From positions 1 to 47,924 of the forward strand of contig DAINRP010000001.1 of the NCBI GenBank assembly GCA_036741755.1: a stretch of 47,924 nucleotides of DNA, written 5' to 3'. The notes under the pieces were generated by a model. That model saw nothing but the letters and a program-made list of their open reading frames with translations. It had not been told where the DNA came from and ran no database searches. Positions 11,489 to 40,173 of the stretch are shown one piece after another (positions within the stretch are counted from its first letter, which is position 1; the number at the start of each line of letters is the position of its first letter). The stretch is from Gemmatimonadales bacterium (GTDB lineage Bacteria; Gemmatimonadota; Gemmatimonadetes; Gemmatimonadales; GWC2-71-9). The translations under genes and the position numbers were made by a program.

Positions 11489-11495
11489 GGTATCC

Positions 11496-18945: not shown

Positions 18946-19335
18946 TCAGCTCCTGGGCGCGAGCCGGCGAGCGAGGGCGACCGGTACGGGGATCTCCATG
19001 CGCAGGAGCGCGGTCGAGTAGACCTTCCCCTGCGCGTCGGTCTTGAGCGAGATAGTGCCGCCGCCATCGAGGGCGCCATGCAGGAGGAAATTCAGCGCCT
19101 TCAGATTAGGGAGTTCGAAACGCTCGACCCCTTTGACCATGCCCTTGAAGTGACGCGTGACCCGCGCGAGCGTCACCTCCTTGACCAGCAGCGGATAGTA
19201 CTCCGGCTCCAGCGCCACGAGCCCCACGTTCGCGGTGTCGCCCTTGTCCCCTGACCGGGCGTGAGCAAGGTAGCGGAGTTGCAGGAGGCGGGTCGCCGGA
19301 GCCGCGCCGCCCCGACTCTTCCGTGCATCAGGCAT
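18946..19335 (-). CDS. Small AtuA-associated protein (DUF4387-like)
   Basis: 129 aa. [22 protein letters not shown]...[21 protein letters not shown] matches my memory of the short partner protein usually encoded next to, or fused with, DUF1446/AtuA. It overlaps the AtuA-like gene by 8 nt. Confidence 0.6.
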
Positions 19336-20704
19336 CGAGCACCTCCACCTGCACGAACGGCTCGATCTCGGTCCGATCGATCAGCGCCGGCCAGTACGCC
19401 ACCACCTCCTGCACCTCGGGACGCCCACCGGCGAAGCCGGTCACGCTCGGCGGCCCGGTCAGCACCAGCGGGGCGATCTCGCGGGTGAAGCGCTCCACGG
19501 CGGCCTTGTCCTTCGAGCGGACACCGACGCGGAGCTGCACCTCGGGGGCCTCCGGATCCGCCGGGCCGGCCAGCGGCCCGTGGGTCGAATCCACGCCCAC
19601 GAACTCGGTGAGGATCTGCTCGAACTCGAGGCCGAGGTCCTTGAGGCGGGCACGGAGGATCCGGTCGGCGGCCTTCGCCTTCTCGTAGGCTTCGGGCCAG
19701 CTGTAGACGAGGGTGCCGACCGCCTTGTAGCCGTAGAAATAGGCGATCGAGACCTTGAGCTTGTCGGTCTTCTCGCGCCCGCGGATGCCGCTGACCCTCA
19801 CGCGGTCCTTGCCCGCCTGGGCGAGCTGGATCGAGGTGAAGTCGGCGACCCCGTCGGGCGTGATGTAGGTGTGCGGATCGCCCATCTCGTAGACCAGTTG
19901 TTCGGTCACGCTCGCGACGTTCACGACGCCACCGGTGTTAGGGTGCTTGGTCACGATGAACGTGCCATCGGCGCTCGCCTCGGCGATCGGGAACCCGGGA
20001 TTCTCGAGTCCTTTGACCTTGCGCCAGTTCTTGAGCAGGTTGCCGCCGCTCGACTGGGCGCCGCACTCGATGATGTGCCCCGCCACGGTACCCGCGGCAA
20101 CCTTGTCCCAGTCATTCACGTCCCAGCCGAACTCGTGGAACAGCGGCCCGAGGGTGAGACCGGTATCGGTCACCCGGCCGGTAATGACTACCTGGGCGCC
20201 GCGCCGCAGCGCCTCCACCATCGGGGCCATGCCGAGATAGGCATTCGCCGACAGCACTTTGTCCCGCACATCGGTGAGCAGGCGTCCGGTGTCGAGATCG
20301 CGCAGCTCGTGCCCCTTGGCCAGCAGCTCATCGAGCCTCGGCAGGATGTCATCACCACTCACGAGGCCGATCTTCACCTTGGCCGACAGGCCCAGCTTGC
20401 GGGCGACTTCGCGGACCGCCTCCGCGCAGGCCCGGGGATTCACCCCGCCGGCATTGCTGGTGACCTTGATGCCCTTCGCGGCGATGTCGGGGAGGATGCG
20501 CTCCATGAGGGGCACGAAGTCGCGCGCGTAGCCGTAGCGAGGGTCCCGCGACTTCTGCTTCTGCATGATGGACATGGTCACCTCGGCGAGGTAGTCCATC
20601 ATGAGGTAGTCGATCGGGCCGCCCTTCACCTGACGGACGGGCGCTTCGAGCCAGTCGCCCCAGAATCCCTGGCCGGCGGCGACGCGGACAGTTTTCGCGG
20701 TCAT
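19328..20704 (-). CDS. AtuA-family (DUF1446, acyclic terpene utilisation) protein
   Basis: Track ORF trimmed to [47 protein letters not shown] (ATG at 20704, ATGA overlap with the S8 peptidase stop). This is the typical DUF1446 N-terminus, and the length is 458 aa. Confidence 0.75.
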
Positions 20705-23526
20705 TGAGTACTCGTGGTTGTCGGTGCCGGGAGCGGCACCTCTCGGGTCCAGGTGCGATCCTGCTCCGGCACGACAACGATGCCCAGCGGCACGAAGCCT
20801 TCGCCGATAGGCAGCCCCGGTGGCTCCATCGGAACGTGCAGCGTGGAGGAAGCCCCAGGGGCCACGGTGACGCGGCTCCCCGCGAGCCGCGAGACATGGG
20901 CGGAATCGGCATAGAGCCGGACCGACACGGTCGCCGACCACCGCTGCGCTGCGGAGGGCTCAGCGAGCCCCGGGAAGAGTTCCAGATCGACGTCCCCGCC
21001 CCCGCGTTTGGGCAGGTCCACGTGCAGCCGTCCAAAGGCGTAATTCAGCGGGGACTTGCCCAGCTGGCGGCCGTCGCCGTCGAACAGCGTCACGCCGAAA
21101 TCGGTAAAGATCGGCCATTGCGCGCGATCCATGCTCACGTCCACGGCGGCGTGAACCGCCCAGTCAGGCAGGCTGAACCGCACGTGACGGGCGTCCCCGC
21201 CAGTCCCGGCAACCGTCACGCTCCGCTCGGCGCCGACCAGGACGACGAAGGGATCGCTGGTGACCGGTGCGGCGCTGACATTGCCGAGCGTGACGGCAAC
21301 GTCGTGGGCCTGCCGCGTCGCCGCGATGGTCACCGGGCTGTGCTCGACGATGATCACCGCGGTGGCGCCATCGAGCGGCGGTGCCACTGCGACGGCCTCG
21401 TAGAATCCGGGAACGACATCCCGCCCGTCCACCATGTAGAGTCCCGCCTCGTCACCATACCCTGCCCCGATGCCGTTCTCCTCCCGGTATGGCTGTCCGC
21501 CCGGCTCGTGCAGGTAGGCTACCACCTGCTCACCGGCGGTGAGGGTGGCGAAGGCGACCGCGAAGGGGCGCGCGGCGGAGGCCTGGAAGAACACCCGGCC
21601 CTCGTTGCCAGCAGGCAGGCGACCGAGGTCGGCCACGACGGTCTCGCCGGTGTCGGCGACCGCAATGCTGTTCACCAGCCGGAAGGCCGGCCCGGCGATG
21701 GTATCGGCGGTCCAGCCGGTGACGATGGCCGTGTGCAGGCCCGGAGTCGCGATCGAATCGGCGGCGTAGCTCATCGTGAGCGTGTTGGTGCCGGCGTTCA
21801 GCCGCGCCTCACGAGGGGCATGCAGCCAGGCGGCGGAGGAGCGCAGGGTCACCGCCGTTTCGGGACTGCCGGCTGGCAGTACCAGCCGGAAGGCCTGCAC
21901 CGTGTCCCCTGCTGTGCCGACGAGCCGGTGGCGAAACGCGGCGGTCACGCCGTTGCCGGCCGCGCGCACCGCGATGTCAGGCAGCGGGTGAACTCCGGCG
22001 AGCCACCGCCACGCGGCCCCGACATCCGGCTGTCCGGTGCCGTCATCCAGGTAGGTCCCCGCGGCCGTCGGACGGGCGGTGACCATCAGCGCCTGACGTA
22101 CCTGCCGCGCATCGACAGTCCGCTTCTCCTGCGCGAGCCCGCTGACCAGCAGCGCGGCGAGACCGGCGGCATGCGGCGACGCCATGCTGGTGCCGGCCTT
22201 CCGCTCGTCGCCGACGTTCCAGCGGGGCACCGTCGAGAACGCGAGCCCGGGCGCGACGATGTCCGGCTTGGAGAGCTCCCCGCCCCGCGATGAGAAGTAG
22301 GCGACCGGGTCTCCGCCCTGTCCGCTGGCGCCGATGAAGACCCCGGGAAAGGTCGCCCCGACCGTGAGGGCGCGGGTGGCCGAGCCGGGGTAGCCCATGG
22401 TGGAGAGCCCGGGGCCATCGTTGCCGGCGCTGATAGCCATGATCACATCCGGGTGCGCCGCCAGCACCGAGTCGAGCGTCCGGTCGATCCGGGCCAGCCC
22501 TTCGCCCTCGTTGCCGACGCCGAAGCTCAGGTTGAGGACCAGCGGCAGCCGCCGCTCCTGTGCGAAGCGGATCGCGTAGCCGATGGCCGCGACCATGCTG
22601 CCGGAGGTCGAGATCCCCCCCTGGGCGTTGTTCGCGATCTTGAGACCGAGGAGCGAGGCGCCCGGCGCCACGCCATTGAAGCCGGCGACACCGTAGATAT
22701 CGTGCCCCGAGGCGATCCCGGCCACGTGCGATCCGTGGGCGCTGGTGTCGAAGTAGAGATCGAGGTGCGGCTGGCCCTTCTCGTCCCGCAGATTCACCGC
22801 GAGTGCAACATTCGGCGGCCGGGCGCCGGTGTGCCACCCGAAGGTCTCCTTCGAGGCCAGGTAGTCGTGCACCGGCCGCTCGTTCGCAAGCGAGCCGTCG
22901 CCATCGGTGTCGGCAAACAGGACCCAGCCATCGCTCGCCCGGGCAACGAGGACCGCCAGGGTGTCGGTATCATCCCGGTCGCCGTTCAGGTCCGCGGCAG
23001 GCAGCTCGCCGAGGGGGATCTCGGCGATGCTGCCGCCGTACAGCGTCCCACCCGCCGCCAGCGCCCGCACGCGGGAAATGCCGCGGAGCACCTTTCCCCC
23101 GATCGTGACCTGGTCACCCACCGGCACCACCGATGTGAGCGGGACCACGCCTTCGCCGGAGAAATCCCGCAGGTCGAGAATCTTCCGCTCGCCGGCGGTG
23201 GTGGTGGTCAGGCCCGGAATCGACGGATCAATGCCGCTGTCCAGAATGCCGATGAGCACCCCGCGGCCGTCATAGGTCGGGTGGGCCTTGAGGAAGTCCT
23301 CGACGCCGGTGGCACGGAGCGGCATCCAGCCCCGCGCGAATGCCTCCTGTGGGGAGATCACCGGCTTCGGGTCGGCCGTCGCCTCCTGCGCGCCCGGGGC
23401 GGCGGCGTCTCGGCTCGGGACGGCAGGAGGCACAACGGGGGGCCGCGCGTGGCTGCAGGCGACGAGGAAACCGGCAAGCAAAGCCAGGGCACAGTACGGG
23501 ACCCCGACGAACCTGGGCGACATCAT
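20701..23526 (-). CDS. S8 subtilase, tripeptidyl-peptidase-II-like, lipoprotein (about 941 aa)
   Basis: Start trimmed to [24 protein letters not shown] (lipobox). Catalytic triad: Asp in [12 protein letters not shown], His in [13 protein letters not shown], Ser in [16 protein letters not shown]. About 175 aa separate Asp from His, against about 30 in classical subtilisins. The C-terminal region is about 480 aa. Confidence 0.85.
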
Positions 23527-23539
23527 GCGAGGGGTCCGT

Positions 23540-25171
23540 TCACCCGATCGGCGGAAGGACGAAGGGCCCGATGTGCGGGCCCGCAAAGTTGCTGGTCACC
23601 CGCAGCAGGAATGCCAGCTGGTCCCGGGTTTCCTCAACGGTGACCAGTGCATCGACATGACCGCGGGCCGCGGCATTTTTGGCGTCGAGCTGGTGCTCGT
23701 AGTCCGCGCGCATGGCGGCGGCGGCCGTCTGCACCTCCGGCGTCGGCGGACGCTTCTCCGCTCGGGCGCGAGCCAGCTCGACGCCATGCACAGCCTCCAC
23801 CGCCGACTCTCCCTCCATGACCGCCATCCGACCGGTGGGCCAGCTCAGGATGAAGTCCGGATCGAACCCCTGCCCCGCCATCGCGTAATAGCCCGCGCCG
23901 GACGCGTGATTCAGCGTCAGCACGATCTTCGGTACCACGGCAGTGGACATCGCTTCCACGAAGCGGGCTCCCGCGCGGATGATGCCCGACTGCTCGGCCT
24001 CGGTCCCCACCATGAATCCGCTGACGTCCTGCAGGAAGAGCAGCGGAATCCGTTCCCGGCTGGCGGTCTCGATGAAGTACGCGGCCTTCTCGGCGCTCTC
24101 GGTGTAGATGATGCCGCCAATCCGCGGCATCTGCCCGGCCTTGCCCTTGATGACGGTCCGGGCGTTGGCGAGAATCGCGACCGGCTGCCCTTCGATGCGG
24201 GCATGCCCGCACAGCAGCTCCTTCGCGAAGTCGGGCTGAAACTCGTCGAGCCGGCCGTCATCGAGCAGACACGCCAGCAGGGCGTGCATGTCGTAGGAGA
24301 GCCGGTGATCGGCGGGGAGGATGTCGTACAGATCGGTGACCGGACGGCTGGGCGGGCGCGGGGGCTCCACCCGGTGCTGCACCTGCTGCATCCGCGGCAG
24401 GCGGGCGATGTAGCCGCGCACCATCGTCACGCATTCCCGATCAGTCGCGGCGCGATAATGTGCGACCGCGGACTGGGAGGTGTGCATCGCCGCGCCCCCG
24501 AGGGACTCGGCGTCCACCACCTGCCCCGTCGCGCCCTTCACCAGATTGGGGCCACCGAGCCCCATGAAGCTGGTCCCGTCGACCATGAAGATCACGTCGG
24601 AGAGCGCGGGCAGATACGCCCCTCCCGCGATGCAGCTCCCCATGACGGCGCTGACCTGCGGCACGAAGAGGTAGCGTCGCATGATCGAGTTGTAGTAGAA
24701 GATCCGCGCGGCGCCGTACTGTCCTGGAAAGACGCCGCCCTGATAGGGGAGGTTCACGCCGGCCGAATCGACCAGGTAGATGATCGGGATCCGCTGCCGC
24801 ATCGCGACTTCCTGGGCGCGCAGGATCTTGGTGATCGTCTCCGGCCACCAGGAGCCGGCCTTCACGGTGGCGTCGTTCGCGACGATGACGACTTCGCGGC
24901 CTTCGACAATACCCAGGCCGGTGATCACGCCCGCCCCGGGCGCCTGACCCTCGTACTGGTCGTAGGCCACGAGCAGGCCCAGCTCCAGCCACGGCGCGCC
25001 GGGATCGAGCAGCGCCTGGACCCGCTCCCGCGGGGCAAGCTGCCCCTTCTCGTGCATCTTCGCGACGCGCTTGGCGCCGCCGCCCTCGCGCAGCTTCGCG
25101 GCGAGGGCGAGGTATTCGTCGGTGAGCGTACGCAGGCGCGGCGGGCGCGAGGTCACGGGCTTGGTGGTCAA
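23540..25171 (-). CDS. Acyl-CoA carboxylase/decarboxylase carboxyltransferase subunit (MccB/AtuC/GcdA-like clade)
   Basis: 543 aa. VIVANDATVKAGSWWPETITKILRAQEVAMRQRIPIIYLVDSAGVNLP and VMGSCIAGGAYLPALSD carry the ANDATVK motif of the MccB/AtuC/GcdA type, rather than the DFTVxGGS motif of PccB. Confidence 0.85.
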   Translation of the reverse strand: MTTKPVTSRPPRLRTLTDEYLALAAKLREGGGAKRVAKMHEKGQLAPRERVQALLDPGAPWLELGLLVAYDQYEGQAPGAGVITGLGIVEGREVVIVANDATVKAGSWWPETITKILRAQEVAMRQRIPIIYLVDSAGVNLPYQGGVFPGQYGAARIFYYNSIMRRYLFVPQVSAVMGSCIAGGAYLPALSDVIFMVDGTSFMGLGGPNLVKGATGQVVDAESLGGAAMHTSQSAVAHYRAATDRECVTMVRGYIARLPRMQQVQHRVEPPRPPSRPVTDLYDILPADHRLSYDMHALLACLLDDGRLDEFQPDFAKELLCGHARIEGQPVAILANARTVIKGKAGQMPRIGGIIYTESAEKAAYFIETASRERIPLLFLQDVSGFMVGTEAEQSGIIRAGARFVEAMSTAVVPKIVLTLNHASGAGYYAMAGQGFDPDFILSWPTGRMAVMEGESAVEAVHGVELARARAEKRPPTPEVQTAAAAMRADYEHQLDAKNAAARGHVDALVTVEETRDQLAFLLRVTSNFAGPHIGPFVLPPIG

Positions 25172-25203: not shown

Positions 25204-25638
25204 TCAGCCCTGGAGATGTTCGCCGGCCCAGACCTCGATGTACTGGATCAGGTCCGACGTCGGCGTGCCCGGGCCGAAGAGCCTGCCCACGCCGAGCTGC
25301 TCGAGCGCTTCCATGTCCTCCTTCGGAATGATGCCCCCGCCAGTGAGCAGGATGTCCGGGCGGCCCGCTTCGGTGAGCAGGGTCCGTACCCGGGGAAAGA
25401 GCGTCATGTGGGCGCCGGAGAGAATCGAGAGGCCGACCACGTCGACGTCCTCCTGGACGGCGGCCGTCGCGATCATCTCCGGGGTCTGGTGCAACCCGGT
25501 GTAGATCACTTCCATGCCGGCGTCGCGCAGCGCGGCGGCCACCACCTTGGCGCCACGGTCATGCCCGTCCAGCCCGGGCTTGGCCACGAGCACGCGGATG
25601 GGACGAGCGAGCGGCTTCCTGTCGAGTGCGGCAACCAT
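25204..25638 (-). CDS. Acyl-CoA mutase small subunit (cobalamin-binding domain)
   Basis: 144 aa. [41 protein letters not shown] has the DxHxxG B12-binding motif, and SILSGAH...GGGIIP is also present. Confidence 0.92.
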
Positions 25639-25664: not shown

Positions 25665-26372
25665 TTAGGTGCGTGCCGAGGCGGCCGTCAGGCTGCCCGT
25701 CGGCGCCAGGACCATTTCGACGACGTCGGCGAGGCTCGCGGCGATCGGGACGTCGCGTCCGGCGTGATTGCCCAGCGGATCGAGGAGCACCACGTCCATG
25801 CGGGCGCGCCGCGCCCCCACCACGTCGACTTCGTAGATGTCACCCACATAGATCGCCTCCTCGGGGGCGAGTGCCATGCGGCGCAGCGCCGCCTCGAAGA
25901 TCCGCGGGTCCGGCTTCTCGAAGCCGACCAGTTGCGAGTCGATCACCACTTCGAAATAGCCGCGGAGCCCTGCCGCCTCGAGTCCCTCCTCGGCGCGGCC
26001 GTCGCTGTTGGAGACGACCCCGAGGCGGTATCCGGCCGAACGGAGTCGGTCCAGCGCTTCGATGGTCCCGTCGAGCACACCACCCCAGAGATGCTTCTCG
26101 AGGTGCAGCGCGAGCAGGGTCTCGCGCACCACAGGCATCTGGCTCTCCGGCACACCGGCGAGCCGGAAGAGTGTTTCGAGATACCGCGAGGCCCGCTCCC
26201 GGTCCGTGGTATCCCCGCGTTCGAGCGACAGCGCCGCCGGTCGCGCCTGCAGCGCCAGCGACTCCGCAGTGAGCGGAACACCAGTCGCCTGGGCCACCGC
26301 CGGCGCGAGCCGGGGGTAATCCAGGAACAGGAGCGTGTTGCCGGCGTCGAAGAGAACCGCTTTTCGACTCAC
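25665..26372 (-). CDS. HAD-superfamily hydrolase, subfamily IA
   Basis: Track ORF 25665..26660 trimmed to the GTG at 26372 (GTGA overlap with the upstream stop). Four HAD motifs are present: motif [12 protein letters not shown] (D-x-G variant), motif II VVSNSD, motif [13 protein letters not shown], motif [15 protein letters not shown]. Confidence 0.8.
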
Positions 26373-27520
26373 CGGAACCGGTACAATCCTGCGATCCCGT
26401 TGATCGCGGCCACCGCTTCCGGATCGTAGAGCACCTCCACCTCCACCCGCTGACGCAGCGCCTCTTCGATCGCGTCGTCGATCAGGTCCAGGACGGGATG
26501 CACGTCGCCGTCGTTGCGGAGATCGCGCTCCGCCACCGCCAGCCGGCCGGTCTTGCTTGAGCGGAAGCCGGGGCCCTGTGCGTCGGCGTCCACCAGCAGG
26601 GTGCGCACCTGCCCGCGACCGAGGGCGCGCAGCGTCGCGTCCGGACCGTCGGAGGCCCATCCGGCGCCGAGCGCGTCCTCGAGTCCATGCGCGATGGTCC
26701 GCTCCGACTCCCGCTCATACTCGGCGCGGGTAGCGAGTGTGGCCTCGTATACCACCGCGGCGGTGGTCTCCTTCGGATTCAAACTCACCACGCCCATCAG
26801 CCGCTCCGCCAGGTACGGGTGCAGGAACGCCGCCACGGCGCCGGCGTCGTTGCCGGGTCCCGCGAGGACGACACCATGCACCGGGCGTTTCCGGTGCAGC
26901 GCAAAGAGCCGCTCGGCGATCATGGCGTAGTGGCGCTGCTTCTCCTCGCGGATCCGGTTGTTGTACTGATGCTCCCCCTTGCCCGGTGAGTCGGCCCGGT
27001 CGCTGTGGAAGCGCCCGCCGCGGGTGGTCTCCGAGCGCAGGTCCTCGACCTCCTCGGCGCCGAACGCCGTGACTTCGAAGAACCGGGCGGCAGTGCGGTC
27101 AAGGACCACGGTGAGCAAGGTGCCGATCTCGTCCTCGACCGAGGCGAGCTCCCGCACCAGTGCCGTACGGTCGACGGCGAGGCGCGAGCGGTGCACGCTG
27201 GGGAGACCCACGAGTTCGAAGAGCTTGAGCGGGCCGCAGGCGAAGATGGCAAGTCCCTGGGTCGCGGGCAGACGGGCCGCATCCTTGAGCTGGTCCTGGA
27301 TCCGCTTGAGATCAGCGCTGACCTCCTCCCGCTGGTGCCGCGTGAGGCCGAGCCCCTCCAGGGCCCCTTCGACCTCACGGATGCGGTTCTTGAGCTTGAT
27401 GAGGTACTTGCCCCGGGAGCGGTCCCGGGGTTCGACCTTGAGATAGCAGGTCACGATGCGATGATCGTCGGTGCGCAGCTTGGTCAGCCGCGTGAGAAGC
27501 TTCTGGATGTCGTTTGCCAT
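26369..27520 (-). CDS. Bacterial eRF1/Pelota-fold (baeRF-type) protein with GGQ replaced by GGR
   Basis: 383 aa. LLTVVLDRTAARFFEVTAFG..VEDLRSETTRGGRFHSDRADSPGKGEHQYNNRIREEKQRHYAMIAERL aligns by eye with the eRF1 M-domain (FGFIVMDGNGALFG...[33 protein letters not shown]). The C-terminal [11 protein letters not shown] resembles the eRF1/Pelota C-terminal GIGGILRY. Confidence 0.7.
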   Translation of the reverse strand: MANDIQKLLTRLTKLRTDDHRIVTCYLKVEPRDRSRGKYLIKLKNRIREVEGALEGLGLTRHQREEVSADLKRIQDQLKDAARLPATQGLAIFACGPLKLFELVGLPSVHRSRLAVDRTALVRELASVEDEIGTLLTVVLDRTAARFFEVTAFGAEEVEDLRSETTRGGRFHSDRADSPGKGEHQYNNRIREEKQRHYAMIAERLFALHRKRPVHGVVLAGPGNDAGAVAAFLHPYLAERLMGVVSLNPKETTAAVVYEATLATRAEYERESERTIAHGLEDALGAGWASDGPDATLRALGRGQVRTLLVDADAQGPGFRSSKTGRLAVAERDLRNDGDVHPVLDLIDDAIEEALRQRVEVEVLYDPEAVAAINGIAGLYRFR

Positions 27521-27599: not shown

Positions 27600-29315
27600 T
27601 TAGAAGAACACCGGCTCCCGATAGGTGCCGTAAACGCTTTCCATCACATGCCGGATCTCGAAGAGCGTACAATAGGCCCGGGCACAGTCGAGCATCGCGG
27701 GGATGACGTTTCGGCCCTCCGCGGCCGCCCGCCGCAATTCGGCCAGCCGCGCATCGACCAACGCCTGGTCGCGCGTGGCGCGGAGCGCCGCCATCCGCTC
27801 GCGCTGTACCCGCTCCGCCTCCTCACCCACCTTGAGGATGGTGACCGGTCCCTCGTCTGCTTCCACGCCTTCGTTCAGGCCGACGATCAGCCGCCGGCGC
27901 TGTTCGACCTCGGACTGGAAGCGGGAGGCCGACTCGGCGATCTGCCGCTGGAACCAGCCTCCCTCGATGGCGCGTACCACCCCGCCCTGGGCTTCGATCT
28001 CGGCGAAGAGCCCCGCCGCTTCGCGCTCCAGGCCGTCCGTCAGGGCCTCGACGTAGTAGGAGCCGCCCAGCGGATCGGCGACGTTCGGGACGCCGGTCTC
28101 GTAGGCGAGGATCTGCTGGGTGCGCAGCGCGATCCGCACCGATGCCTCGGTCGGCAGGGCGAGCGTTTCATCGAGGGCGTTGGTATGCAGCGACTGGGTC
28201 CCGCCGAGCACCGCGGCGAGGGCCTGATAGGCGACGCGCACGATGTTGTTGTACGGCTGCTGCGCGGTGAGCGAGACGCCCGCGGTCTGGCAGTGGAAGC
28301 GCATCTGGCAGCTGCGCGGCTTCGTGGCGCCGAACTTCTCGCGCATGGTGCGCGCCCAGATGCGCCGGGCCGCGCGCATCTTGGCGATCTCCTCGAAGAA
28401 GTCGTTGTGCACGTCCCAGAAGAACGACAGGCGCGGCGCGAAGCTGTCCACGTCGAGCCCGCGCGCGACACCATGCTCCACATAGCAGAAGCCGTTGGCC
28501 AGGGTGAACGCCAGTTCCTGCGCCGCGGTGGCGCCCGCCTCGCGAATGTGGTAGCCGGAGATCGAGATCGTGTTCCAGCTCGGCGTATGCTCCGCCGCCC
28601 ACTCGAAGAGATCGACGATCACCTTGAGCGCCGGTTCCACCGGGAAGATCCAGGCATGCTGGGCCATGTACTCTTTCAGCATGTCGTTCTGGATCGTGCC
28701 CTGCAGCTTGCTGATGTCCGCGCCCTGGCGTTCCGCCGCGGCGACGTAGAAACAGAACAGCATGGCGGCCGGGCCGTTGATGGTCATCGAGGTGGAGACC
28801 CGGTCGAGCGGGATCCCCGCGAAGAGATCCTCCATGTCGCGGAGGCTCGAGATCGCCACGCCGCACTTGCCGACCTCCCCCTCGGACCGCGGGTGGTCGG
28901 CGTCGTAGCCCATCAGCGTGGGAAAATCGAAGGCCACCGACAGGCCGGTCTGGCCGCGGGCGAGCAGAAACTTGTAGCGTTCGTTGGTGTCCTGGGCGGT
29001 CCCGAACCCCGCGAACTGGCGCATCGTCCAGAGGCGCCCGCGGTACATCGTCGGGTGAATGCCGCGAAGATAGGGATATTCCCCCGGCAGTCCCGAGGCT
29101 GTGAACTGATCGCCCCGCACATCAAGAGGGGTGTACACCGGGGCGACACTCCGCCCGGAGATCGTGGTGAAATCCGTATCCTCACGCCGGGGCAGCGCCG
29201 CCGCGCGCTCGCGCCAGGCGGCCACCTCGGCGCGGAGCTGATCCAGCTCTCGGGCCTGCGCAGCGAGGCGCTCTTCGGGCGAGCGAGAGGCGGGATCGGG
29301 CTTCGAGACGGTCAT
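27600..29315 (-). CDS. Cobalamin-dependent acyl-CoA mutase large (catalytic) subunit with an isobutyryl-CoA-mutase-like active-site signature
   Basis: Track ORF trimmed to MTVSKPDP (ATG at 29315, ATGA overlap with the meaB stop). Contains [70 protein letters not shown] and [18 protein letters not shown]. 571 aa, with no B12-binding domain. Confidence 0.9.
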
Positions 29316-30343
29316 AGACGCGTTCCCTGCTTGAGTCCGTCCAGCACTTCGGCGGCCACTTCGTAGGGGCTCATCCGGCCGGCGGCCACATCGTCCATCC
29401 GATCGCGGATCATCTGCTCGACCCCGGTCTCCTGCCACACCCACTGCCGAGCGGTGCGATCAACCACCTCACGGGTGCGGTCGTGCAGCCGGCGCCGGCG
29501 CCGTTCCCCCAGTTGTCCGGCCCGGGACAGCATCTCGAAGTGCGCGTCAATCGCCGTCACCAGTTGGTCCACTCCCTCGCCCTTCGCCGCGACCGTGGCG
29601 AGCACCGGCTGCTTCCAGTTCGGCACCGGCGGCTCCTCCGTCCGGGGGGCAGCCGTCGCCGACGGGCCATGGTGGGCCCGGACATGCCGCATCGCGTTCC
29701 CGCTCCGGATGCCCAGCGTGATCTCGATCTCCTGCCGCAGCCGGTCGGCCCCCGGCCGGTCCGCCTTGTTCACCACGAAGATGTCGCCGATCTCCATGAT
29801 GCCGGACTTGAGTGTCTGGATGCCGTCGCCCGATTCGGGCACCAGGACCAGCACCGTTGTGTCGGTGCTTCTGGCGACGTCGAGCTCCGTCTGCCCCACG
29901 CCCACGGTCTCGACCAGAATCCGGTCGAACCCGCCGGCATCGAGCACATCGCAGACCTCGCGTGTGGTGGTGGCGAGCCCGCCCAGCGATCCGCGGGTCG
30001 CCATGGAGCGAATGAACACGCCGGGATCCAGCGCCACCGACTCCATGCGGATCCGGTCACCGAGAAGCGCCCCGCCGGTGAACGGACTGGTCGGATCCAC
30101 CGCCACCACGGCGACCGTCAGCCCTTGGGCCCGGTAGGCCTGAACCAGCCGCTCCGTCAGGGTGGACTTCCCCGCCCCGGGCGGCCCGGTAATACCGATA
30201 CGCCGGGCGTGACCCAGCGCGGGATGAATGGAGGAGAGGAGTTCCTCGAAACCGGGTCGGGCGTTCTCAACCAGCGAGATCGCGCGAGCGATCGCGGGCA
30301 CCTTCCTGGCCCGAAGGTCGGCCACGAGGGGGGCGAGTTGCAT
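29312..30343 (-). CDS. meaB: MeaB/ArgK-type G-protein chaperone for B12-dependent mutases
   Basis: [18 protein letters not shown] (P-loop), [21 protein letters not shown] and VVNKADR. It lies directly upstream of the mutase gene and overlaps it. Confidence 0.92.
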
Positions 30344-30457: not shown

Positions 30458-31027
30458 TCAGTCCTGATCGTGGAGTTCCCGGCGCAGCAGACGGGTCACT
30501 CCCCACACGATGACTCCCCCCACGACCACCGCGCCCAGCAGCCACTGTTCCACCCGCTTCACTTCTCCGGTCAACGCGGTGGTGCCATGGCCGACCAGGT
30601 AGCCCAGGAGACTGAATCCCGTCGCGGCGAGTGCGCAGCCCAGACCGTCGATCAGGACGAAGCGCAACGGCGCGAGTCCGGCCTGCCCCCAGTAGAGCAT
30701 GCTGGCATTCCGGGTGCCGTAGATGACGCGGGCGACGAGCAGTTGCCAGGCGCCGAGCCGTCGGGTGAGCCGGACGATGCGGGGGCCGACGGCCCGGTAG
30801 AGCTTTGAGGCCTGGATGCGGGCGGTGTGCCGGCGTCCCATCCAGAACCACACCAGATCGCCGCCGAGGTTGCCGAAGGCGCCGGCGATCATGACGCCCG
30901 CGAGCGGCAGAATCCCGAGGTGGGCCAGTACGCCGCCGACGATCAGGCTCACATCCCCCTCGACCGTGGCCAGCAGAAACAGGGCGATCAGGCCGTACTG
31001 CGACAGGAAACTCTCGATCGAAGTCAT
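30458..31027 (-). CDS. DedA-family inner membrane protein
   Basis: Track ORF trimmed to MTSIESFLSQYGLIALFLLATVEGDVSLIVGGVLAHLG (ATGA overlap with the chrA stop). 189 aa, multi-TM, with a DedA/SNARE-associated pattern. Confidence 0.75.
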   Translation of the reverse strand: MTSIESFLSQYGLIALFLLATVEGDVSLIVGGVLAHLGILPLAGVMIAGAFGNLGGDLVWFWMGRRHTARIQASKLYRAVGPRIVRLTRRLGAWQLLVARVIYGTRNASMLYWGQAGLAPLRFVLIDGLGCALAATGFSLLGYLVGHGTTALTGEVKRVEQWLLGAVVVGGVIVWGVTRLLRRELHDQD

Positions 31028-32136
31028 GACAGCAATCCCCCGAGAACCAGTCCGCCGAGGACGATCCACCCCGGGTTCAGGGCGGTGCGGGCGAGGACGA
31101 GGAACGCCAGCGCGGCGATGCCCCACGTTGGGGGACCGGTCAGCGCCGTCGTCGCCAGATGCAGCGTCACCGACACCATCAACCCGAGCGCCGCCACATT
31201 CACCGCGTCCAGGAACGCGGCGCTCCAGGGCGATCGGCGCAGGCGCCCCACCAGGCGCGACGTCAGTGCCACGAACACAAATGAAGGCAGGAAGATACCG
31301 AGCGTGGCGATGAGGGCGCCGGTCCATCCCAGCACCAGATAGCCTACGAATGTCGCCGTTGAAAGGACCGGCCCGGGGGTGAACTGCCCGGCCGCGATGG
31401 CATCGACCAGTTGCGGACGGGTGAGCCAGTGGAGCCGCTCGACGAGACCACTCTCCAGGAAGGCGAACAGTACATAGCCGCTGCCGTAGAGAATGCTGCC
31501 GACCTTCAGGAAGAAGAGCCCGAGAGCGACAAGCGTCGGTTCGATCCCCCTCAGCACCGCGCCCCGGCCGAATCGCGGAACCCCGGCGATCCAGCAGGCG
31601 CCGAGGACTCCACCTCCTAGAAGCAGGAACAGTTCATTCCCGCCAAGTAATGAGGCGATCAGGACGAGCGAGCCGGCAATGCCGAGAACTCGCGATTTGA
31701 CCGCCGTCTTTCCGAGCCGCCAGATCGCCGAGATGATCACCGCGAGCACCGCGGCGCGCACCCCGGCGAGGGGACCCGCCATCGCCGGCAGGTCACCGAA
31801 GCGAACGTAGCTCCACGCAAGGAGACCGGTGATGAGCACGGCGGGGAGAATGAATGCGAAGCCTGCAACGAGGAGCCCCGCGCCGCCGGCGCGTCGCCAG
31901 CCGATGTGCATTGCGAGTTCGCTGGAGTTCGGGCCCGGGATCAGATTGGCCGCCCCCAGCAGGTCGAGGAATTCGGCGCGAGTGAGCCAGCCGCGGCGGG
32001 TGACAACCGCGTCCTCCATGAGTGCGATGTGCGCGGCCGGCCCGCCGAAGCTGGTTGCCCCCAGCCGAAGAAAGAGCGTGGCGAGCTCGGCGAGCGGGTT
32101 CGCGCGTTCATGAGCGGGGACGGGCCGCTGTACCAT
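31024..32136 (-). CDS. chrA: Chromate transporter (ChrA/CHR family, two-domain form)
   Basis: Trimmed to MVQRPV... Contains LFLRLGATSFGGPAAHIALMEDAVVTRRGWLTRAEFLDLLGAANLIPGPNS, and a second half with FLKVGSILYGSGYVLFAFLE...QFTPGPV. This is the duplicated CHR domain. Confidence 0.88.
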   Translation of the reverse strand: MVQRPVPAHERANPLAELATLFLRLGATSFGGPAAHIALMEDAVVTRRGWLTRAEFLDLLGAANLIPGPNSSELAMHIGWRRAGGAGLLVAGFAFILPAVLITGLLAWSYVRFGDLPAMAGPLAGVRAAVLAVIISAIWRLGKTAVKSRVLGIAGSLVLIASLLGGNELFLLLGGGVLGACWIAGVPRFGRGAVLRGIEPTLVALGLFFLKVGSILYGSGYVLFAFLESGLVERLHWLTRPQLVDAIAAGQFTPGPVLSTATFVGYLVLGWTGALIATLGIFLPSFVFVALTSRLVGRLRRSPWSAAFLDAVNVAALGLMVSVTLHLATTALTGPPTWGIAALAFLVLARTALNPGWIVLGGLVLGGLLS

Positions 32137-32198
32137 GTACGATTGACAGGGGTGGAAGACTCCGGAAGTATACTTCCCCCGTGTCCACTTCCCCGCCG

Positions 32199-33653
32199 AT
32201 GGGTCGGCTCGGCCTGCCACGACGACTGGCGCTAATCACCGCATTGCTCGCGGTCCTGCTGGTGGCAGGCGCCACCGAGGTCGGCCTGTCACTGGCCGAG
32301 CGCTCGCGGCTCGAGGACCTGCGGGCGGAATCCGTCGACCTCGCCAACACCCTCGCCGCCTATCTGACCCGCATCGCCCCGACCGGCGAACCCAGCGCGC
32401 TTAACGTCGGGATCGCCGGGTGGAGCCGGCGCCACATCACCGAGACGACCGCCATCGTGTTCGTGGCGGCCAGAAACACCCTGCGGCCCGCTGCCGCGAG
32501 CGACAGCACGGTGACCCGCGAGCCCGATGACCTGGACGCCGAGGCACTGGTGCGCCGGGTGACGGCCGTCCGATTCCGCGAGGAGCCGGAGCCGGCGTGG
32601 CAGGTCGTGGTACCGTTAGGCGGCCAGCGGGTCTACGGTGTGCTGGACGTGCAAGTCTCGACGGGACGTCTCGCAAGCTGGGCCAGGCTGGAGCGGAAGC
32701 GGGCGTACACCTTTGCGATCGGGGCCGCCCTGCTGCTCTCCGTCGGTGTCGGCCTGCTGACCAGCCGCTGGGTCGGCCTGCCACTCAAGTCGCTTACCCA
32801 GGCCATGGCTGGCGCCCACCAGGGGGCATCGGGGGCGCCCGAGGCGGCTGAGATCGGACCACCGGAATTTCGCGAGCTGGCTCGACGGTACAATGAGATG
32901 CGGACAGCGCTGGCACACCGGGAGCGGGAGAGCGCGTCGCGGGCGGCGCTGCTGTCACTGGAGGACCGCGCCAAGGCCTACGACCGGCTGGCGCAGGCCG
33001 AGGAGATCGCCGGCAGCTTTGCCCATGAGATCGGCACCCCGCTCAACACGATGAACGGGCATCTGCAACTGCTGCAAGAGGACATGCGGCAGGCCCACGA
33101 TGCGGGCGGCGAGGAACGGGTCGCGCTGCTGCTCTCCCAGGTGGAACGAGTCGCCAAGATCGTTCGCGGGGGGCTCACCCGCGGCAGCTGGCCCGCTCCG
33201 CGGCGGGTGCCGACCGACCTCCACGAGCTGGCGGCGCGCATGGTGCGCTTTCTGGAGCCCTCGCTGGACGAGGCTGGCGTCCTGGCGGAGCTGAAGCCCG
33301 GGACCGCCAGCGCGACCGCCGCCACCGACCCCGACCTGGTCGAACAGATCCTGCTCAATCTGCTCAAGAACGCCATCGAGGCGCTGCCCCGTGGTGGGAA
33401 GATCACCCTCTCGGCCGGCCAGGACGGGGCAGGAGCCTACATCGATGTCGCCGACGATGGCCCCGGGCTTCCGACCCAGGCCCGTAGCCAGCTGTTCCAG
33501 CCATTCGTCACTTCCAAGGGATCGTCGGGTACTGGTCTCGGACTTGCCGTTAGCCGGCGCCTCGCCCATGCGCTGGGCGGAGAGCTGGCCTACGTAGATT
33601 CCGAGAAAGGGACCTCATGGCGACTTACCCTGCCACCCGCAGACACGAGATGA
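32199..33653 (+). CDS. Sensor histidine kinase (two TM helices, extracytoplasmic sensor, HAMP, HisKA, HATPase_c)
   Basis: Trimmed to MGRLGLPRRLALITALLAVLLVAG. H-box is SFAHEIGTPLNTMNGHL, N-box is LLNLLKNAIEA, and the G-boxes are DDGPGL and GTGLGLAV. Confidence 0.88.
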   Translation: MGRLGLPRRLALITALLAVLLVAGATEVGLSLAERSRLEDLRAESVDLANTLAAYLTRIAPTGEPSALNVGIAGWSRRHITETTAIVFVAARNTLRPAAASDSTVTREPDDLDAEALVRRVTAVRFREEPEPAWQVVVPLGGQRVYGVLDVQVSTGRLASWARLERKRAYTFAIGAALLLSVGVGLLTSRWVGLPLKSLTQAMAGAHQGASGAPEAAEIGPPEFRELARRYNEMRTALAHRERESASRAALLSLEDRAKAYDRLAQAEEIAGSFAHEIGTPLNTMNGHLQLLQEDMRQAHDAGGEERVALLLSQVERVAKIVRGGLTRGSWPAPRRVPTDLHELAARMVRFLEPSLDEAGVLAELKPGTASATAATDPDLVEQILLNLLKNAIEALPRGGKITLSAGQDGAGAYIDVADDGPGLPTQARSQLFQPFVTSKGSSGTGLGLAVSRRLAHALGGELAYVDSEKGTSWRLTLPPADTR

Positions 33654-35080
33654 GCGCCCAGACCGGCCATGCACGACTGCTGCTCGTCGATGACGACGAG
33701 GCCGCCTGCCGCATGCTCGGCGAGGTGCTCGAGCGCGAGTCCTACACCGTGCATCGCGCCCTCTCGGTGAAGGATGCCCTCGCGATCTATGAGCGTGAGG
33801 GCCCGTTCGATGCGGTGCTCACCGATCTCCGCATGCCGGAGGCGAGCGGCCTCGATCTGCTCGCCGCCGTCCGGCAGCGCGCGCCGGAAGCGCTCGTCCT
33901 GGTCCTTACCGCGTTCGGCGACGCCGGGGCGGCGGCCGAGGCGATCCGGGCCGGCGCCTATGATTTCATCAGCAAACCGTATGACCTGACGGAGCTTCGC
34001 TCGACGCTCTCCCGCGCGCTGGAGCGGCGGGAACTGGCGACCGCACGACAGGAGAGCGCCGCCGCCACGCTCAAGCGCGACGGCCCCGCCCCGGTGGCCG
34101 AGAAGGGCGTGCTGGTCGGCCATAGCCCCGGCATCATCGCCGTCATGAAACAGGTGGCCCGGGTGGCTTCCACCCAGGCCTCGGTGCTCCTGCTCGGTGA
34201 CACCGGCACCGGCAAGGAACTGGTCGCGCGGACGATCCACCGGTTTTCGGATCGCGGCGACAAGCGCATGGTGGCGGTCAATTGTTCGGCGCTCGCCGAG
34301 GGTCTGCTCGAGAGCGAGCTCTTCGGCCACGTGAAGGGGGCGTTCACCGGCGCCGTCGGCAGCCGCCCCGGGCTTTTCCGCGAGGCCGACAAGGGCACCG
34401 CCTTCCTCGACGAGATCGGCGACATATCGCCGGGCCTGCAGGCCCGCCTGCTTCGGGTGCTGCAGGAGCAGGAAATCGTCCCGGTGGGTGCGGAGACCCC
34501 GATCAAGGTGGATGTCCGGATCATCGCGGCCACCCACCGCGACCTCGCGCAGATGGTTCGGGACAAGAAGTTCCGCGAGGACCTGTACTACCGGCTCAAC
34601 GTGGTCACCATCCAGCTGCCGCCGTTACGGGAGCGGCGCCAGGACATTCCGCTGCTGATCGATCACTTCCTGACGACGCTCGCTGCACGCCACGGCCGCG
34701 GCCCCGTGGCGATCGATCCGAAGGCGCAGGCGGCGCTGCTCGCCTGGGACTGGCCCGGAAACGTCCGGGAACTCGAGAACGTGCTCGAGCGGGCAATGGT
34801 GCTCGCCGAACTGGACGTCATTGGTCCGGAGCATCTGCCGGAGGCGATCCGTGCCGCTCTCCAGCCGCTACCGGCACCCGCCTCCGCCGCCCGGCCGGGA
34901 GAACTCCAGACGGACGAGGTGGAACTGGTGACCCTCGATGAACTCGACCGGCGCCACGTCTTTCGGGTGCTGGCCGCGATGAAAGGGAATCGCGAAGACT
35001 CGGCCCGTACACTCGGCATCTCCCGGCGCACCCTCACCCGCATGATTCAGCGCTGGCAGTGGAAGCCCGGCGCCGTCTAG
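33650..35080 (+). CDS. Sigma-54-dependent response regulator (NtrC family: REC, AAA+, HTH)
   Basis: ATGA overlap with the kinase stop. REC domain has LLLVDDD...DAVLTDLRMPE. AAA+ domain has LLLGDTGTGKELVAR, ESELFGHVKGAFTGA (GAFTGA loop) and WPGNVRELENV. The C-terminal HTH is ARTLGISRRTLTRMIQR. Confidence 0.93.
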   Translation: MSAQTGHARLLLVDDDEAACRMLGEVLERESYTVHRALSVKDALAIYEREGPFDAVLTDLRMPEASGLDLLAAVRQRAPEALVLVLTAFGDAGAAAEAIRAGAYDFISKPYDLTELRSTLSRALERRELATARQESAAATLKRDGPAPVAEKGVLVGHSPGIIAVMKQVARVASTQASVLLLGDTGTGKELVARTIHRFSDRGDKRMVAVNCSALAEGLLESELFGHVKGAFTGAVGSRPGLFREADKGTAFLDEIGDISPGLQARLLRVLQEQEIVPVGAETPIKVDVRIIAATHRDLAQMVRDKKFREDLYYRLNVVTIQLPPLRERRQDIPLLIDHFLTTLAARHGRGPVAIDPKAQAALLAWDWPGNVRELENVLERAMVLAELDVIGPEHLPEAIRAALQPLPAPASAARPGELQTDEVELVTLDELDRRHVFRVLAAMKGNREDSARTLGISRRTLTRMIQRWQWKPGAV

Positions 35081-38823: not shown

Positions 38824-40173
38824 CTAGACGCCGAGGATGATGCTGGTCAGGCCGAAGAGCAGCAGGAAGCCGCAGACGTCGGTGAACGTCGTCACGAAGA
38901 TCGATGAGGCCACTGCGGGGTCGATGTCGAACCTGGCGAGGAGCAGCGGGATGAACGCACCTGCGAAGCCCGCCACGAACAGATTCCCGGTCATCGCGAG
39001 GAATACCACCAGCCCGAGTCGCGCGCCGTGGCCGAGCATGAGCGCCACGAGTGCCGCGGCGGCGCCATTGGCCATGCCGTTGGCGATCCCGACCAGGACC
39101 TCCTTGCCGATGACGCTCATCGCCCGGCCGGCGGGAATGAGACCCAGCGCCACACGCCGGACGGTGACCGCGAGCGCCTGGGTACCGCCGTTGCCCCCCA
39201 TCCCCGCGATGACGGGCATCCAGAAGACGAGGGCGAGCACCTTGCTCACCTCGTTCTGAAAGCGAGACGCTACCCAGCCGGCGAGGAACGCCGTGAGGAG
39301 GTTCAGCAGCAGCCAGGGAAGGCGGCTCCGGACGGCGCCGGTCCAGGTGGCGGCGAGCTCTTCGTCGGCGGAGGTACCGCCGAACTTGAGCAGGTCCTCG
39401 GTCTGTTCCGCCTCGACGACATCGATTACGTCATCGAACGTCACCTGGCCGAGCAGGCGCCCGCCTCCATCGACCACGGGCACCGCCGGCACGTTGTAGC
39501 GGCTCATGACGCGGGCGACTTCCTCCTGGTCCAGCTCCGGCGCCACCCGGATCTCGGTGTCCTCCATGAACTCGGAGACCACGCGACTCGCGGGGCTGGT
39601 GACGAGCCGCTTGATGGGGAGCACCCCCAGCAGGTGGTCGCTCTCGTCGACCACGTACACCTGGGTGAAGTCCTCGATCTCTTCCGCCTGCCGTCGCAGT
39701 GACTCGATCGCCTCTCCCGCGGTGCTTTCGGCCCGCACGGTGACGACCTGCGCGGTCATCAGGCCGCCGGCGGTCTCCGGGTCGTACCGCAGCAGGTCCT
39801 CGATGTCCTGGCGGTCTTCGACTTCGGCGAGCACCCGCTCCTGGTCCTCAGGATCGAGGCCGCCGACGAGGTCGGCCGCCTCGTCATCCGGCAGTCCCTC
39901 GATGATTTCGCCGGCCGCCTCGGGCGCCTCGGTCGCGAGACTTTCCATCGTCTCCTCGACCTGCGCCTCGTCCGGCATCTCCATCAGCGCCGCGCCTGAC
40001 AACCTGCGTGGCAGCGCCTTGACGACTTCGAGGCGCTCCTCATCATTGAGCGAGGAAAGCACGTCGCCGAGGTCGGCGGGCTCCGCCTTTTCCGCGAGGG
40101 CGAGGAAGCCGCGCAGGTTGCCGCGCTCGATCAGGTCGAGCATGGCGCGGACGATCGTAGTCGCGCGACTCAT
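38824..40173 (-). CDS. mgtE: Magnesium transporter MgtE
   Basis: 449 aa. An acidic MgtE N-domain, a CBS pair (LMTAQVVTVRAESTAGEAI...VYVVDESDHLLGVLPIKRLV) and a C-terminal 5-TM domain (GMGGNGGTQALAV). Confidence 0.92.
   Translation of the reverse strand: MSRATTIVRAMLDLIERGNLRGFLALAEKAEPADLGDVLSSLNDEERLEVVKALPRRLSGAALMEMPDEAQVEETMESLATEAPEAAGEIIEGLPDDEAADLVGGLDPEDQERVLAEVEDRQDIEDLLRYDPETAGGLMTAQVVTVRAESTAGEAIESLRRQAEEIEDFTQVYVVDESDHLLGVLPIKRLVTSPASRVVSEFMEDTEIRVAPELDQEEVARVMSRYNVPAVPVVDGGGRLLGQVTFDDVIDVVEAEQTEDLLKFGGTSADEELAATWTGAVRSRLPWLLLNLLTAFLAGWVASRFQNEVSKVLALVFWMPVIAGMGGNGGTQALAVTVRRVALGLIPAGRAMSVIGKEVLVGIANGMANGAAAALVALMLGHGARLGLVVFLAMTGNLFVAGFAGAFIPLLLARFDIDPAVASSIFVTTFTDVCGFLLLFGLTSIILGV

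Follow-up and report, generated by a model that had tools for sequence, protein, structure and literature searches.

The window analyzed here is a stretch of 47,924 nucleotides (nt; ~68% GC) from a Gemmatimonadales bacterium (contig DAINRP010000001.1 of assembly GCA_036741755.1). At positions 26369 to 27520 of its minus strand, an ATG-initiated open reading frame encodes a 383-residue bacterial archaeo-eukaryotic-type release factor homolog (baeRF; bacterial aeRF1-like protein). Profile searches and a structural model identify this protein as a three-domain member of the aeRF1 superfamily, within the baeRF clade, and its nearest characterized relatives are the Balon hibernation factors. The gene stands out only in that Gemmatimonadota keep it sandwiched between the large- and small-subunit genes of a B12-dependent acyl-CoA mutase. 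We consider it probable, with considerable room for doubt, that the baeRF is a noncatalytic, Balon-type A-site factor whose expression is coupled through its operon to a catabolic module. The conserved mutase-operon context is new and, as yet, a correlation only.

Family assignment was based on profile searches in both directions. Among Pfam models, the protein matches baeRF_family10 (PF18854) at 43.1 bits, above the gathering cutoff of 27.1, with baeRF_family2 as the second match (31.8 bits; cutoff, 26.9). PF18854 is the top Pfam family for the baeRF and for every relative tested, with the exception of P0171 (baeRF_family12). Core members of family 10 score 103 to 115 bits with this model versus 43 bits for the window clade, and a profile of the clade retrieves those core proteins over their full length with E values of 1e-38 to 1e-52. 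Within the bacterial aeRF1-like clade (Pfam baeRF_family10), to which the Balon hibernation factors belong, the protein forms a divergent branch specific to Gemmatimonadota. The curated hibernation-factor families that NCBIfam now has for the Balon-type proteins AOC03_06830, MSMEG_1130, and Rv2629 also give full-length matches (E values of 7e-14 to 2e-9, under their cutoffs), and P0246, a core family-10 relative, aligns end to end with the Balon MSMEG_1130 (E value of 2.7e-9). The aRF1/eRF1 model TIGR03676 was matched at 20.3 bits, short of the release-factor threshold of 234.7. Because a single-sequence search of the Protein Data Bank (PDB) returned only a marginal match to eRF1 (E value of 0.015), a family profile was used for this comparison; built from 21 orthologs, it matched eRF1 and aRF1 chains with E values of 7e-6 to 2e-5.

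For structural comparison, a first AlphaFold2 (AF2) model was generated from 21 close homologs (predicted local distance difference test score [pLDDT] of 69.7; predicted template modeling score [pTM] of 0.44), and the Foldseek template modeling (TM) scores obtained with it could not separate Balon from eRF1. The model that replaced it, from a 65-sequence alignment spanning the family, reached a pLDDT of 88.8 and a pTM of 0.77. When this model was compared to the PDB using Foldseek, the top match was Msmeg1130 (8v9j_z; E value of 1.5e-22, TM scores of 0.71/0.75, and a root mean square deviation of 4.7 Å over 391 columns), and TM scores were 0.64 to 0.69 for P. urativorans Balon (8rd8, 8rdv, and 8rdw), 0.61 for Rv2629, and 0.61 to 0.63 for 8v9k. 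Every Balon chain scored higher than eRF1/aRF1 (TM score of ≤0.52) or Pelota (≤0.43). The aRF1/eRF1 chains gave E values of 1e-20 to 1e-14 and the Pelota/Dom34 chains gave 1e-11 to 1e-7; matches extended over 370 to 430 columns, in keeping with a predicted N/M (RNase-H-like)/C (Pelota/eRF1_3) architecture. The sequence-only reading had proposed an eRF1/Pelota fold within the baeRF clade, along with a check of it by HMMER/Pfam and AlphaFold–Foldseek; the proposal held up on both counts, with a baeRF_family10 match above threshold, a superposition that was best with Balon, and Foldseek E values of 1e-22 to 1e-14 for Balon, aRF1, and eRF1. With ribosome-bound Balon structures ranked first by Foldseek, the fold proposed from sequence is right, and the homology goes well past what chance would give.

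The same reading had also taken all baeRFs to lack a demonstrated function, which is outdated. P. urativorans Balon (AOC03_06830), M. smegmatis MSMEG_1130, and M. tuberculosis Rv2629 have been established as ribosome hibernation factors through cryo-electron microscopy and genetics (Helena-Bueno et al., Nature 2024, PMC10901736). These proteins occupy the A site with EF-Tu independently of mRNA, lack both NIKS and GGQ, and inhibit translation (PMC10901736). As such, the question of what baeRFs do has largely been answered since the Balon work. The window protein shares with the Balons the three-domain aeRF1-type architecture, the best model match being to ribosome-bound forms (TM scores of 0.61 to 0.75), and the absence of NIKS and of the GGQ glutamine. 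With aRF1/eRF1 and Pelota/Dom34 it shares homologous N, M, and C domains and an Arg-rich helix after the M-domain loop (NRIREEKQRHY in the window); unlike aRF1/eRF1, it has no NIKS and no conserved GGQ, and its global conformation is a poorer fit. A canonical release role is not expected, because bacteria terminate translation with RF1/RF2.

The N domain (approximately residues 1 to 131; positions 27128 to 27520, minus strand) was delimited using the secondary structure of the AF2 model and a HMMER alignment to aRF1. The first ~130 residues are modeled as three β-strands and a helical hairpin (strands at residues 22 to 28, 89 to 95, and 100 to 106; helices at 31 to 36, 38 to 57, and 61 to 77). 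HMMER aligns residues 61 to 318 to residues 64 to 329 of aRF1 (4af1), starting just past the NIKS position, and the segment is a degenerate aeRF1 N domain rather than the helical, eRF1-unlike segment of 90 residues described from sequence. In the alignment to aRF1, NIKS itself is absent; the hairpin tip reads EGLGLT and is variable among orthologs. A basic motif that is near-invariant in 131 orthologs (C25-Y-x-K-x-E30-P-R-D-R-x-R-G-K-Y-x-I-K-x-K-N-R46; nt 27383 to 27448) is located at the hairpin base, across from the NIKS tip. The decoding-centre loop of Balon (the "HP motif") is likewise placed on the N-domain side opposite the NIKS position (PMC10901736). There is no HP dipeptide in the window protein, which differs from the Balons in having E30-P31 instead; by sequence alignment only, the near-invariant E30-P31-R-D-R loop corresponds to a D-P in core family-10 proteins and MSMEG_1130.

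The M-domain loop (residues 163 to 186; positions 26963 to 27034, minus strand) occupies the position of the eRF1 GGQ loop, and its conservation was gauged by column counts over 131 mutase-embedded orthologs. In the window, residues 167 to 170 are RGGR (GGC GGG CGC at 27019 to 27011), followed by FHSDRADSPGKGEHQ at residues 171 to 185 and NRIREEKQRHYAMIAE at residues 188 to 203; these features, the coordinates of the reading frame, and the C-terminal GIAGLYRFR are all present as quoted in the sequence-only reading. T166 is retained in 123 of the 131 orthologs, R167 in 129, and G168 in 115, while position 170 is Arg in 124 and Lys in 6. At position 169, Gly occurs in 54, Lys in 51, and Ser in 15, i.e., the second glycine varies in ~60% of orthologs. 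The firmest columns lie further on: E183 and R189 (131/131 each), G182 (129/131), and H184 (118/131). Together these give a loop signature of T166-R167-G168-x-R170-F-H...G182-E183-H184, and the helix NRIRxEKQRH that follows is among the strongest conserved features. No column from residue 163 to 186 contains a conserved Gln in these orthologs (Q185 of the window is mostly Thr), and the predicted absence of a catalytic Gln is robust. The loop is predicted to be flexible (pLDDT of 59 to 70) and ranges from 20 to 38 residues in length among orthologs. Balon-type factors have in their M domain a lasso loop around A2602 and a bL27 trap; the window protein has this long, conserved loop in its M domain.

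The equivalence of individual loop residues to GGQ depends on the alignment used. HMMER places eRF1 GRGGQ on G180-K-G182-E183-H184. The family alignment instead places the GG of core family-10 GGWSQ on G168-G169, followed by an insertion of ~11 residues, with the core Q/E on E183. Finally, the core family-10 GGWSQ aligns to aRF1 GGQSQ, giving transitive support for an equivalence between RGG and eRF1 RGGQ. The candidate equivalents of the GGQ glutamine are accordingly R170, K181, or H184. It had been claimed from sequence that GGQ was changed to GGR: the loss of the catalytic Gln stands, but the pairing of RGG with RGGQ is one of three defensible alignments. The invariance of GGR, put forward for checking, did not materialize, as the residues that are fixed or nearly so are E183, R189, and G182. 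We rejected GGQ-to-GGR as the key substitution because it is unproven, given the conflict among the three alignments and the variability of position 169. Both GGQ glycines are essential in true release factors.

These loop features bear directly on the possibility of an active, stop-codon-independent peptidyl-tRNA hydrolase or rescue factor in which the M-domain loop would reach the peptidyl-transferase center and Glu183/His184 would replace the GGQ glutamine in water positioning, which we regard as quite unlikely. The loop is conserved beyond what an inert plug would call for, in particular at R167, G182, E183, and H184, and E183 falls on the conserved Q/E of core relatives in the family alignment. 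The core members, with their GGWSQ aligned to aRF1 GGQSQ, also match the acVLRF1 peptidyl-tRNA hydrolase model. In addition, Burroughs and Aravind flagged family 10 among the few possibly active baeRF families, owing to a well-conserved loop Gln (PMC6514570). In the window clade, however, that column holds an invariant Glu183, the loop has no fixed Gln at any position, and the GG pair is not conserved. The spread of loop lengths is the pattern reported for inactive families (PMC6514570), the global conformation of the model fits Balon and not accommodated eRF1, and paralogs adjoin HPF, RtcB, and Hsp20 genes, as noncatalytic Balons do.

The C domain (approximately residues 286 to 383; positions 26372 to 26665, minus strand) is predicted to be eRF1 domain-3/Pelota-like from the AF2 model and the family alignment. 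In the model, a two-strand insert (strands at residues 318 to 321 and ~326 to 327; insert at ~318 to 327) stands at a degenerate zinc-ribbon site and may correspond to the EF-Tu-contacting β-insertion of Balon. Decay of the zinc ribbon can be followed stepwise: core family-10 proteins have CxxC..CxxC, two Cys are left in the stress-operon paralogs and in an embedded clade at ~60% identity, and none remain in the window's own clade. The window clade thus differs from core family 10 (GGWSQ or GGWxGYEE plus a zinc ribbon) in the ~11-residue loop insertion, the lost ribbon, and a Glu where some core members have Gln. A C-terminal LRFR is invariant, and the window protein ends in GIAGLYRFR.

Genomic contexts of more distant relatives provide a second line of evidence for a ribosome-directed role. 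Balon genes have stress-response operon neighbors (RaiA/HPF, Hsp20, RtcB, and DnaK/J) that differ among phyla (PMC10901736). Paralogs of the window protein at 43 to 46% identity retain G168, P179-G180-x-G182-E183, the Arg-rich helix, and LRFR, and they share with the Balons a set of Hsp20/RtcB/HPF/DnaK-type neighbors. The clearest of these loci (L081, positions 77 to 6287; 46% identity) reads Hsp20 | baeRF–tandem USP–RtcB–HPF(S30AE)+CSD–HAD-like, a context that matches the operon types of the Balon paper. Other paralogs are found in a Gemmatimonadales metagenome-assembled genome (MAG) as baeRF–DUF4342–FtsH-like–PRTase (P0130), with USP and Cpn60 nearby (L129), and beside a NiFe hydrogenase cluster (P0136). 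Among core family-10 members, one lies in a ClpB–baeRF–DnaK–DnaJ arrangement (P0216), one beside an ArsA/Hsp20-like ATPase, and one beside an NYN RNase; neighbors of these types are described in the Balon paper. We favor a ribosomal role over a mutase- or HAD-directed one because the paralogs that share the same motifs sit in stress-type operons and because the HAD gene adjacent to the window baeRF is often lost.

Three side observations concern these relatives. The fusion of S30AE/HPF to a cold-shock domain (CSD) at L081 is itself an unusual chimeric hibernation factor. Four proteins from Thermodesulfobacteriota/Dadabacteria-type MAGs (P0169, P0171, P0172, and P0175) keep G-x-G-E and have loops of 30 to 45 residues in place of the GGQ loop. 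The P0171 gene is followed by that of an NYN-domain RNase, with overlapping stop and start codons.

In the window, the genes from MeaB through an AtuA-ferredoxin-like gene form a single minus-strand run. The first gene encodes the G-protein chaperone MeaB (29312 to 30343; PF03308, 306 bits; TIGR00750, 333 bits and above cutoff), and its stop codon overlaps the ATG of the large (catalytic) subunit of the acyl-CoA mutase as ATGA (27600 to 29315; PF01642, 746 bits). A gap of 79 nt separates the mutase gene from the baeRF, whose stop codon in turn overlaps, as GTGA, the GTG start of a 235-residue HAD-IA hydrolase (25665 to 26372; Pfam Hydrolase/HAD_2, above threshold; HDHD3/REG-2-like). Next are the 144-residue small (B12-binding) mutase subunit (25204 to 25638; PF02310, 92 bits; TIGR00640, 173 bits) and the carboxyltransferase subunit of an acyl-CoA carboxylase (23540 to 25171; PF01039, 440 bits), which is found downstream in nearly all loci. 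The GTGA overlap and the placement between mutase subunits, all on the minus strand, agree with what had been read from the sequence. The run continues with an S8 subtilase-type peptidase of 961 residues with a lipoprotein-like N terminus (20701 to 23586; assigned by tblastn synteny, with Peptidase_S8 in orthologous loci), AtuA (19328 to 20941), and the AtuA-ferredoxin-like gene (18946 to 19335).

The baeRF is almost certainly cotranscribed with this acyl-CoA catabolic module and partly translationally coupled to it; cotranscription and selective maintenance of the gene are both well supported. Compared to the nearest orthologs, the ratio of nonsynonymous to synonymous substitution rates (dN/dS) is lowest for the mutase (0.03), followed by the baeRF (0.04) and the HAD hydrolase (0.05), and the baeRF is thus under strong purifying selection, on par with the mutase. 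Consensus scans of the operon found no promoter-like or terminator-like signal above shuffled expectation, and a scan for the σ54 promoter consensus was at or below that expectation. No Rfam family, cobalamin riboswitch included, was detected anywhere in the window. A role in anti-phage defense was considered and dropped, as PADLOC gave no match for the baeRF or the HAD protein.

Conservation of this arrangement was assessed across 139 ingroup loci, using as denominators the loci with enough flanking sequence for each comparison. The mutase gene is immediately upstream of the baeRF in 121/123 loci, and the B12-binding subunit is downstream in 115/118. A scan of GTDB species representatives yielded 80 loci at 58 to 95% identity, labeled Gemmatimonadales, Gemmatimonadaceae, Gemmatimonadota, or Gemmatimonadetes in all cases but one (L043, Bacillota), and wherever the flank was adequate the order was MeaB–mutase–baeRF–[HAD]–B12–carboxyltransferase–S8. 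With more distant relatives as seeds, a scan of metagenomes carried this order down to 41% identity, and two long contigs from a deep clade have the same block inside a PhoH/YbeY/CorC backbone. In many ortholog lineages, the mutase and baeRF genes overlap or are separated by only 2 to 12 nt. Wherever the mutase is present, the baeRF is never displaced from ahead of the B12 subunit. Even in L130 (1 to 2137) and L124 (1 to 1600), where an IcmF-like fusion gene (B12 domain–MeaB–mutase; minus strand of each contig, opposite in strand) replaces the MeaB–large-subunit pair, the baeRF is still directly ahead of the B12 subunit, which is followed by carboxyltransferase–S8.

The HAD gene is less tightly bound to the block. 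It is present in 78/126 assessable loci and absent from 48/126, which led us to reject an obligatory baeRF–HAD two-gene module; coupling to the HAD gene is weaker than coupling to the mutase. Repeated loss of the HAD gene is the simplest history, given that even the deepest embedded clade has HAD orthologs. The linkage proposed from sequence, of the baeRF to both the HAD and mutase genes, was therefore borne out for the mutase and only partly for the HAD. One 17-kb locus (L142, contig Ga0315287_10000026) presents the converse case: at 7854 to 12865, baeRF–HAD–S8 directly follows PhoH–7TM-HD–CorC–CorC, and the locus has no MeaB, neither mutase subunit, and no carboxyltransferase. Because L142 keeps baeRF–HAD–S8 without mutase genes, the function of the baeRF would be independent of the mutase. 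The L142 baeRF also has an expanded loop (…GGRFHAAQRAGPLQGGGHAASGSGEY…).

Given this context, the aeRF1 fold might instead have been repurposed, with the protein acting as a scaffold for mutase assembly or repair between the large and small subunits, as a partner of MeaB, or jointly with the HAD enzyme in processing an acyl- or phospho-substrate. We consider such repurposing very unlikely, even though the exact position between mutase subunits is held from 41 to 95% identity and in two deep clades, survives the IcmF-like replacement upstream in L124 and L130, and is accompanied by overlaps of start and stop codons, both between the baeRF and HAD genes and, for some lineages, between the mutase and baeRF genes. 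The hallmark motifs of the protein are common to paralogs in mutase-free, stress-type operons, and the near-invariant features include an Arg-rich helix and a basic N-domain motif, both typical of rRNA binders. L142 retains baeRF–HAD in the absence of any mutase gene, the HAD gene is itself frequently missing, and synteny confined to one phylum can be inherited without direct interaction. The GTPases bound by aeRF1 C domains are moreover of the translational type, whereas MeaB belongs to the SIMIBI class. Of the three functional options originally offered from sequence, the ribosome-directed factor is therefore the one that we favor, and a fold repurposed to work with the HAD or mutase enzymes is disfavored.

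The third option, a neutral insertion, corresponds to a frozen accident without regulatory meaning, in which a generic Balon-like factor, expressed constitutively or from an internal promoter, owes its gene order to vertical inheritance. This account is unlikely in our estimation. It draws on the taxonomy of the embedded loci, which where labeled are all Gemmatimonadota/Gemmatimonadales apart from the MAG L043 (Bacillota), and on the generally low rearrangement of the region, since the whole PhoH/YbeY/CorC...MeaB...AtuA backbone is syntenic. The 79-nt gap ahead of the baeRF in the window and the variation of Balon gene neighbors by phylum (PMC10901736) fit as well. The region is nevertheless not inert: HAD losses, the intercalation of genes upstream in the window, and the mutase deletion at L142 have all occurred, yet the baeRF has stayed in place. 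In many lineages, the gaps of 2 to 12 nt or overlaps leave no room for an intergenic promoter, and the operon scans gave no promoter- or terminator-like sites above shuffled expectation.

The favored reading, a noncatalytic Balon-type factor tied to the operon, would operate as follows. By homology, the baeRF would bind the ribosomal A site without stop-codon recognition or peptidyl-tRNA hydrolysis. Its basic N-domain motif (...EPRDRxRGKYxIKxKNR) would touch the decoding center, and the C domain would touch EF-Tu. Contacts to 23S rRNA near the peptidyl-transferase center would come from the long loop of the M domain together with the Arg-rich helix (NRIRxEKQRH). Ribosomes would be silenced and protected as the outcome. 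Through its place in the operon, the output of this ribosome-silencing factor may be tied to the nutrient-scavenging state in which the operon is expressed. The catabolic module, with its secreted or lipoprotein protease, acyl-CoA carboxylase, isobutyryl-CoA mutase (ICM)-like mutase, and AtuA, would serve the catabolism of proteins and branched-chain acyl-CoA. The EF-Tu dependence and the physiological logic of this scheme are extrapolated from the homologs and the operon.

Several points weigh against this reading. The bit scores with the Balon equivalog models are far under their cutoffs (52 versus 330, 43.8 versus 480, and 37.2 versus 320), and by these scores the window protein is not an ortholog of any characterized Balon; identity to the Balons is only ~16 to 19%. 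We infer ribosome binding from fold and family only, and the logic of coexpression under starvation is similarly conjectural. The M-domain loop is longer than in the Balons and strongly conserved, with an invariant Glu-His, unlike the loops described for noncatalytic baeRFs, which Burroughs and Aravind reported to be poorly conserved in the catalytic loop (PMC6514570); the assignment of family 10 as possibly catalytic by the same authors, noted above, points in the same direction. The window gene and its orthologs are located in a B12-mutase/acyl-CoA catabolic operon and not, as the Balon genes are, in a stress operon. Lastly, near-universal retention between mutase subunits could mean a direct functional tie that hibernation does not explain. 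On a further reading, the baeRF would be a mechanistically distinct A-site factor with Glu183-His184 chemistry (peptidyl-tRNA hydrolysis or some other reaction) at the peptidyl-transferase center, or its activity or abundance would be gated directly by the B12-mutase/MeaB system; we rate this reading as decidedly improbable.

The best NCBIfam matches of the HAD hydrolase, TIGR02253/TIGR02252 (REG-2/CTE7 subfamilies), score ~100 bits, under their cutoffs, and its closest PDB entry is human HDHD3 (3k1z; E value of 2e-19). All four catalytic motifs (FD9AG[NG]TL, S121-N-S-D-G, E-K153-P-D-P, and G-D178…D183) are kept in 78 orthologs; conservation thus covers the nucleophile Asp, Ser/Thr, Lys, and acidic motif IV, as in HDHD3/REG-2-like proteins. 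The Asp+2 position of the general acid/base is an invariant Gly (78/78 orthologs), and no DxD is present; this Gly resembles HDHD3/REG-2-like and dehalogenase-type members. From its motifs, the protein is predicted to be a catalytically intact HDHD3-like hydrolase. Its frequent loss marks it as an accessory rather than an obligatory partner.

The closest PDB entry to the mutase is HcmA (4r3u). In alignments to 1req, 2xij, 6oxc, and 4r3u, the mutase has RQ-F-AGF and MA-Q-HAW, i.e., Phe and Gln where methylmalonyl-CoA mutase has the carboxylate-binding Tyr89 and Arg207 (P. shermanii numbering), and it has Ala where HcmA, a 2-hydroxyisobutyryl-CoA mutase, has Asp117. The window mutase therefore lacks the Tyr/Arg pair of methylmalonyl-CoA mutase. 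Phe/Gln is the signature of ICM. These active-site residues make CoA esters of the isobutyryl/butyryl type (or isovaleryl/pivalyl type), rather than methylmalonyl-CoA, the probable substrates of the operon.

Other features of the window concern the surroundings of the operon. Between MgtE (38824 to 40173) and MeaB, the window intercalates extra genes: a TonB-dependent receptor (35935 to 38727), a histidine kinase and σ54 activator pair (32022 to 35080), a chromate transporter (31024 to 32220), and a DedA/VTT protein (30458 to 31327). In the deep-branching loci L173 and L174, MeaB comes straight after PhoH/YbeY/CorC/CorC/(MgtE). At the other end of the operon, nearly every locus has the S8 subtilase directly 3' of the carboxyltransferase, with AtuA and the AtuA-ferredoxin-like gene next in line. 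The N terminus of the subtilase reads …LLAGFLVAC…, and it is odd for a protease to share an operon with enzymes of acyl-CoA catabolism.

A literature search found no published link between Balon or hibernation factors and methylmalonyl-CoA mutase, and Gemmatimonadota are not mentioned in the text of the Balon paper or in two supplement text files, the sequence data sets being outside this scope (PMC10901736). The new elements so far are only the conserved operon context and the Glu-His loop, both of them correlative. Balon-type factors were recognized only in 2024. Gemmatimonadota, which are common in soils, have fixed a Balon-like gene in a B12-mutase/carboxylase/protease operon. The well-conserved subfamily, recognizable by its TRGxRFH...GEH loop, its EPRDRxRGKY motif, and the loss of the zinc ribbon, would be useful for structure-function work on the role of non-GGQ loops at the peptidyl-transferase center. 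If the link to the operon is only historical, the window protein would be an ordinary Balon homolog. If the protein is instead a distinct A-site factor or is gated by the mutase, short-chain acyl-CoA/B12 metabolism would be hard-wired to ribosome silencing. On the reading that we favor, Gemmatimonadota would offer a concrete case of ribosome silencing that is coexpressed with a specific catabolic program rather than with a generic stress regulon.

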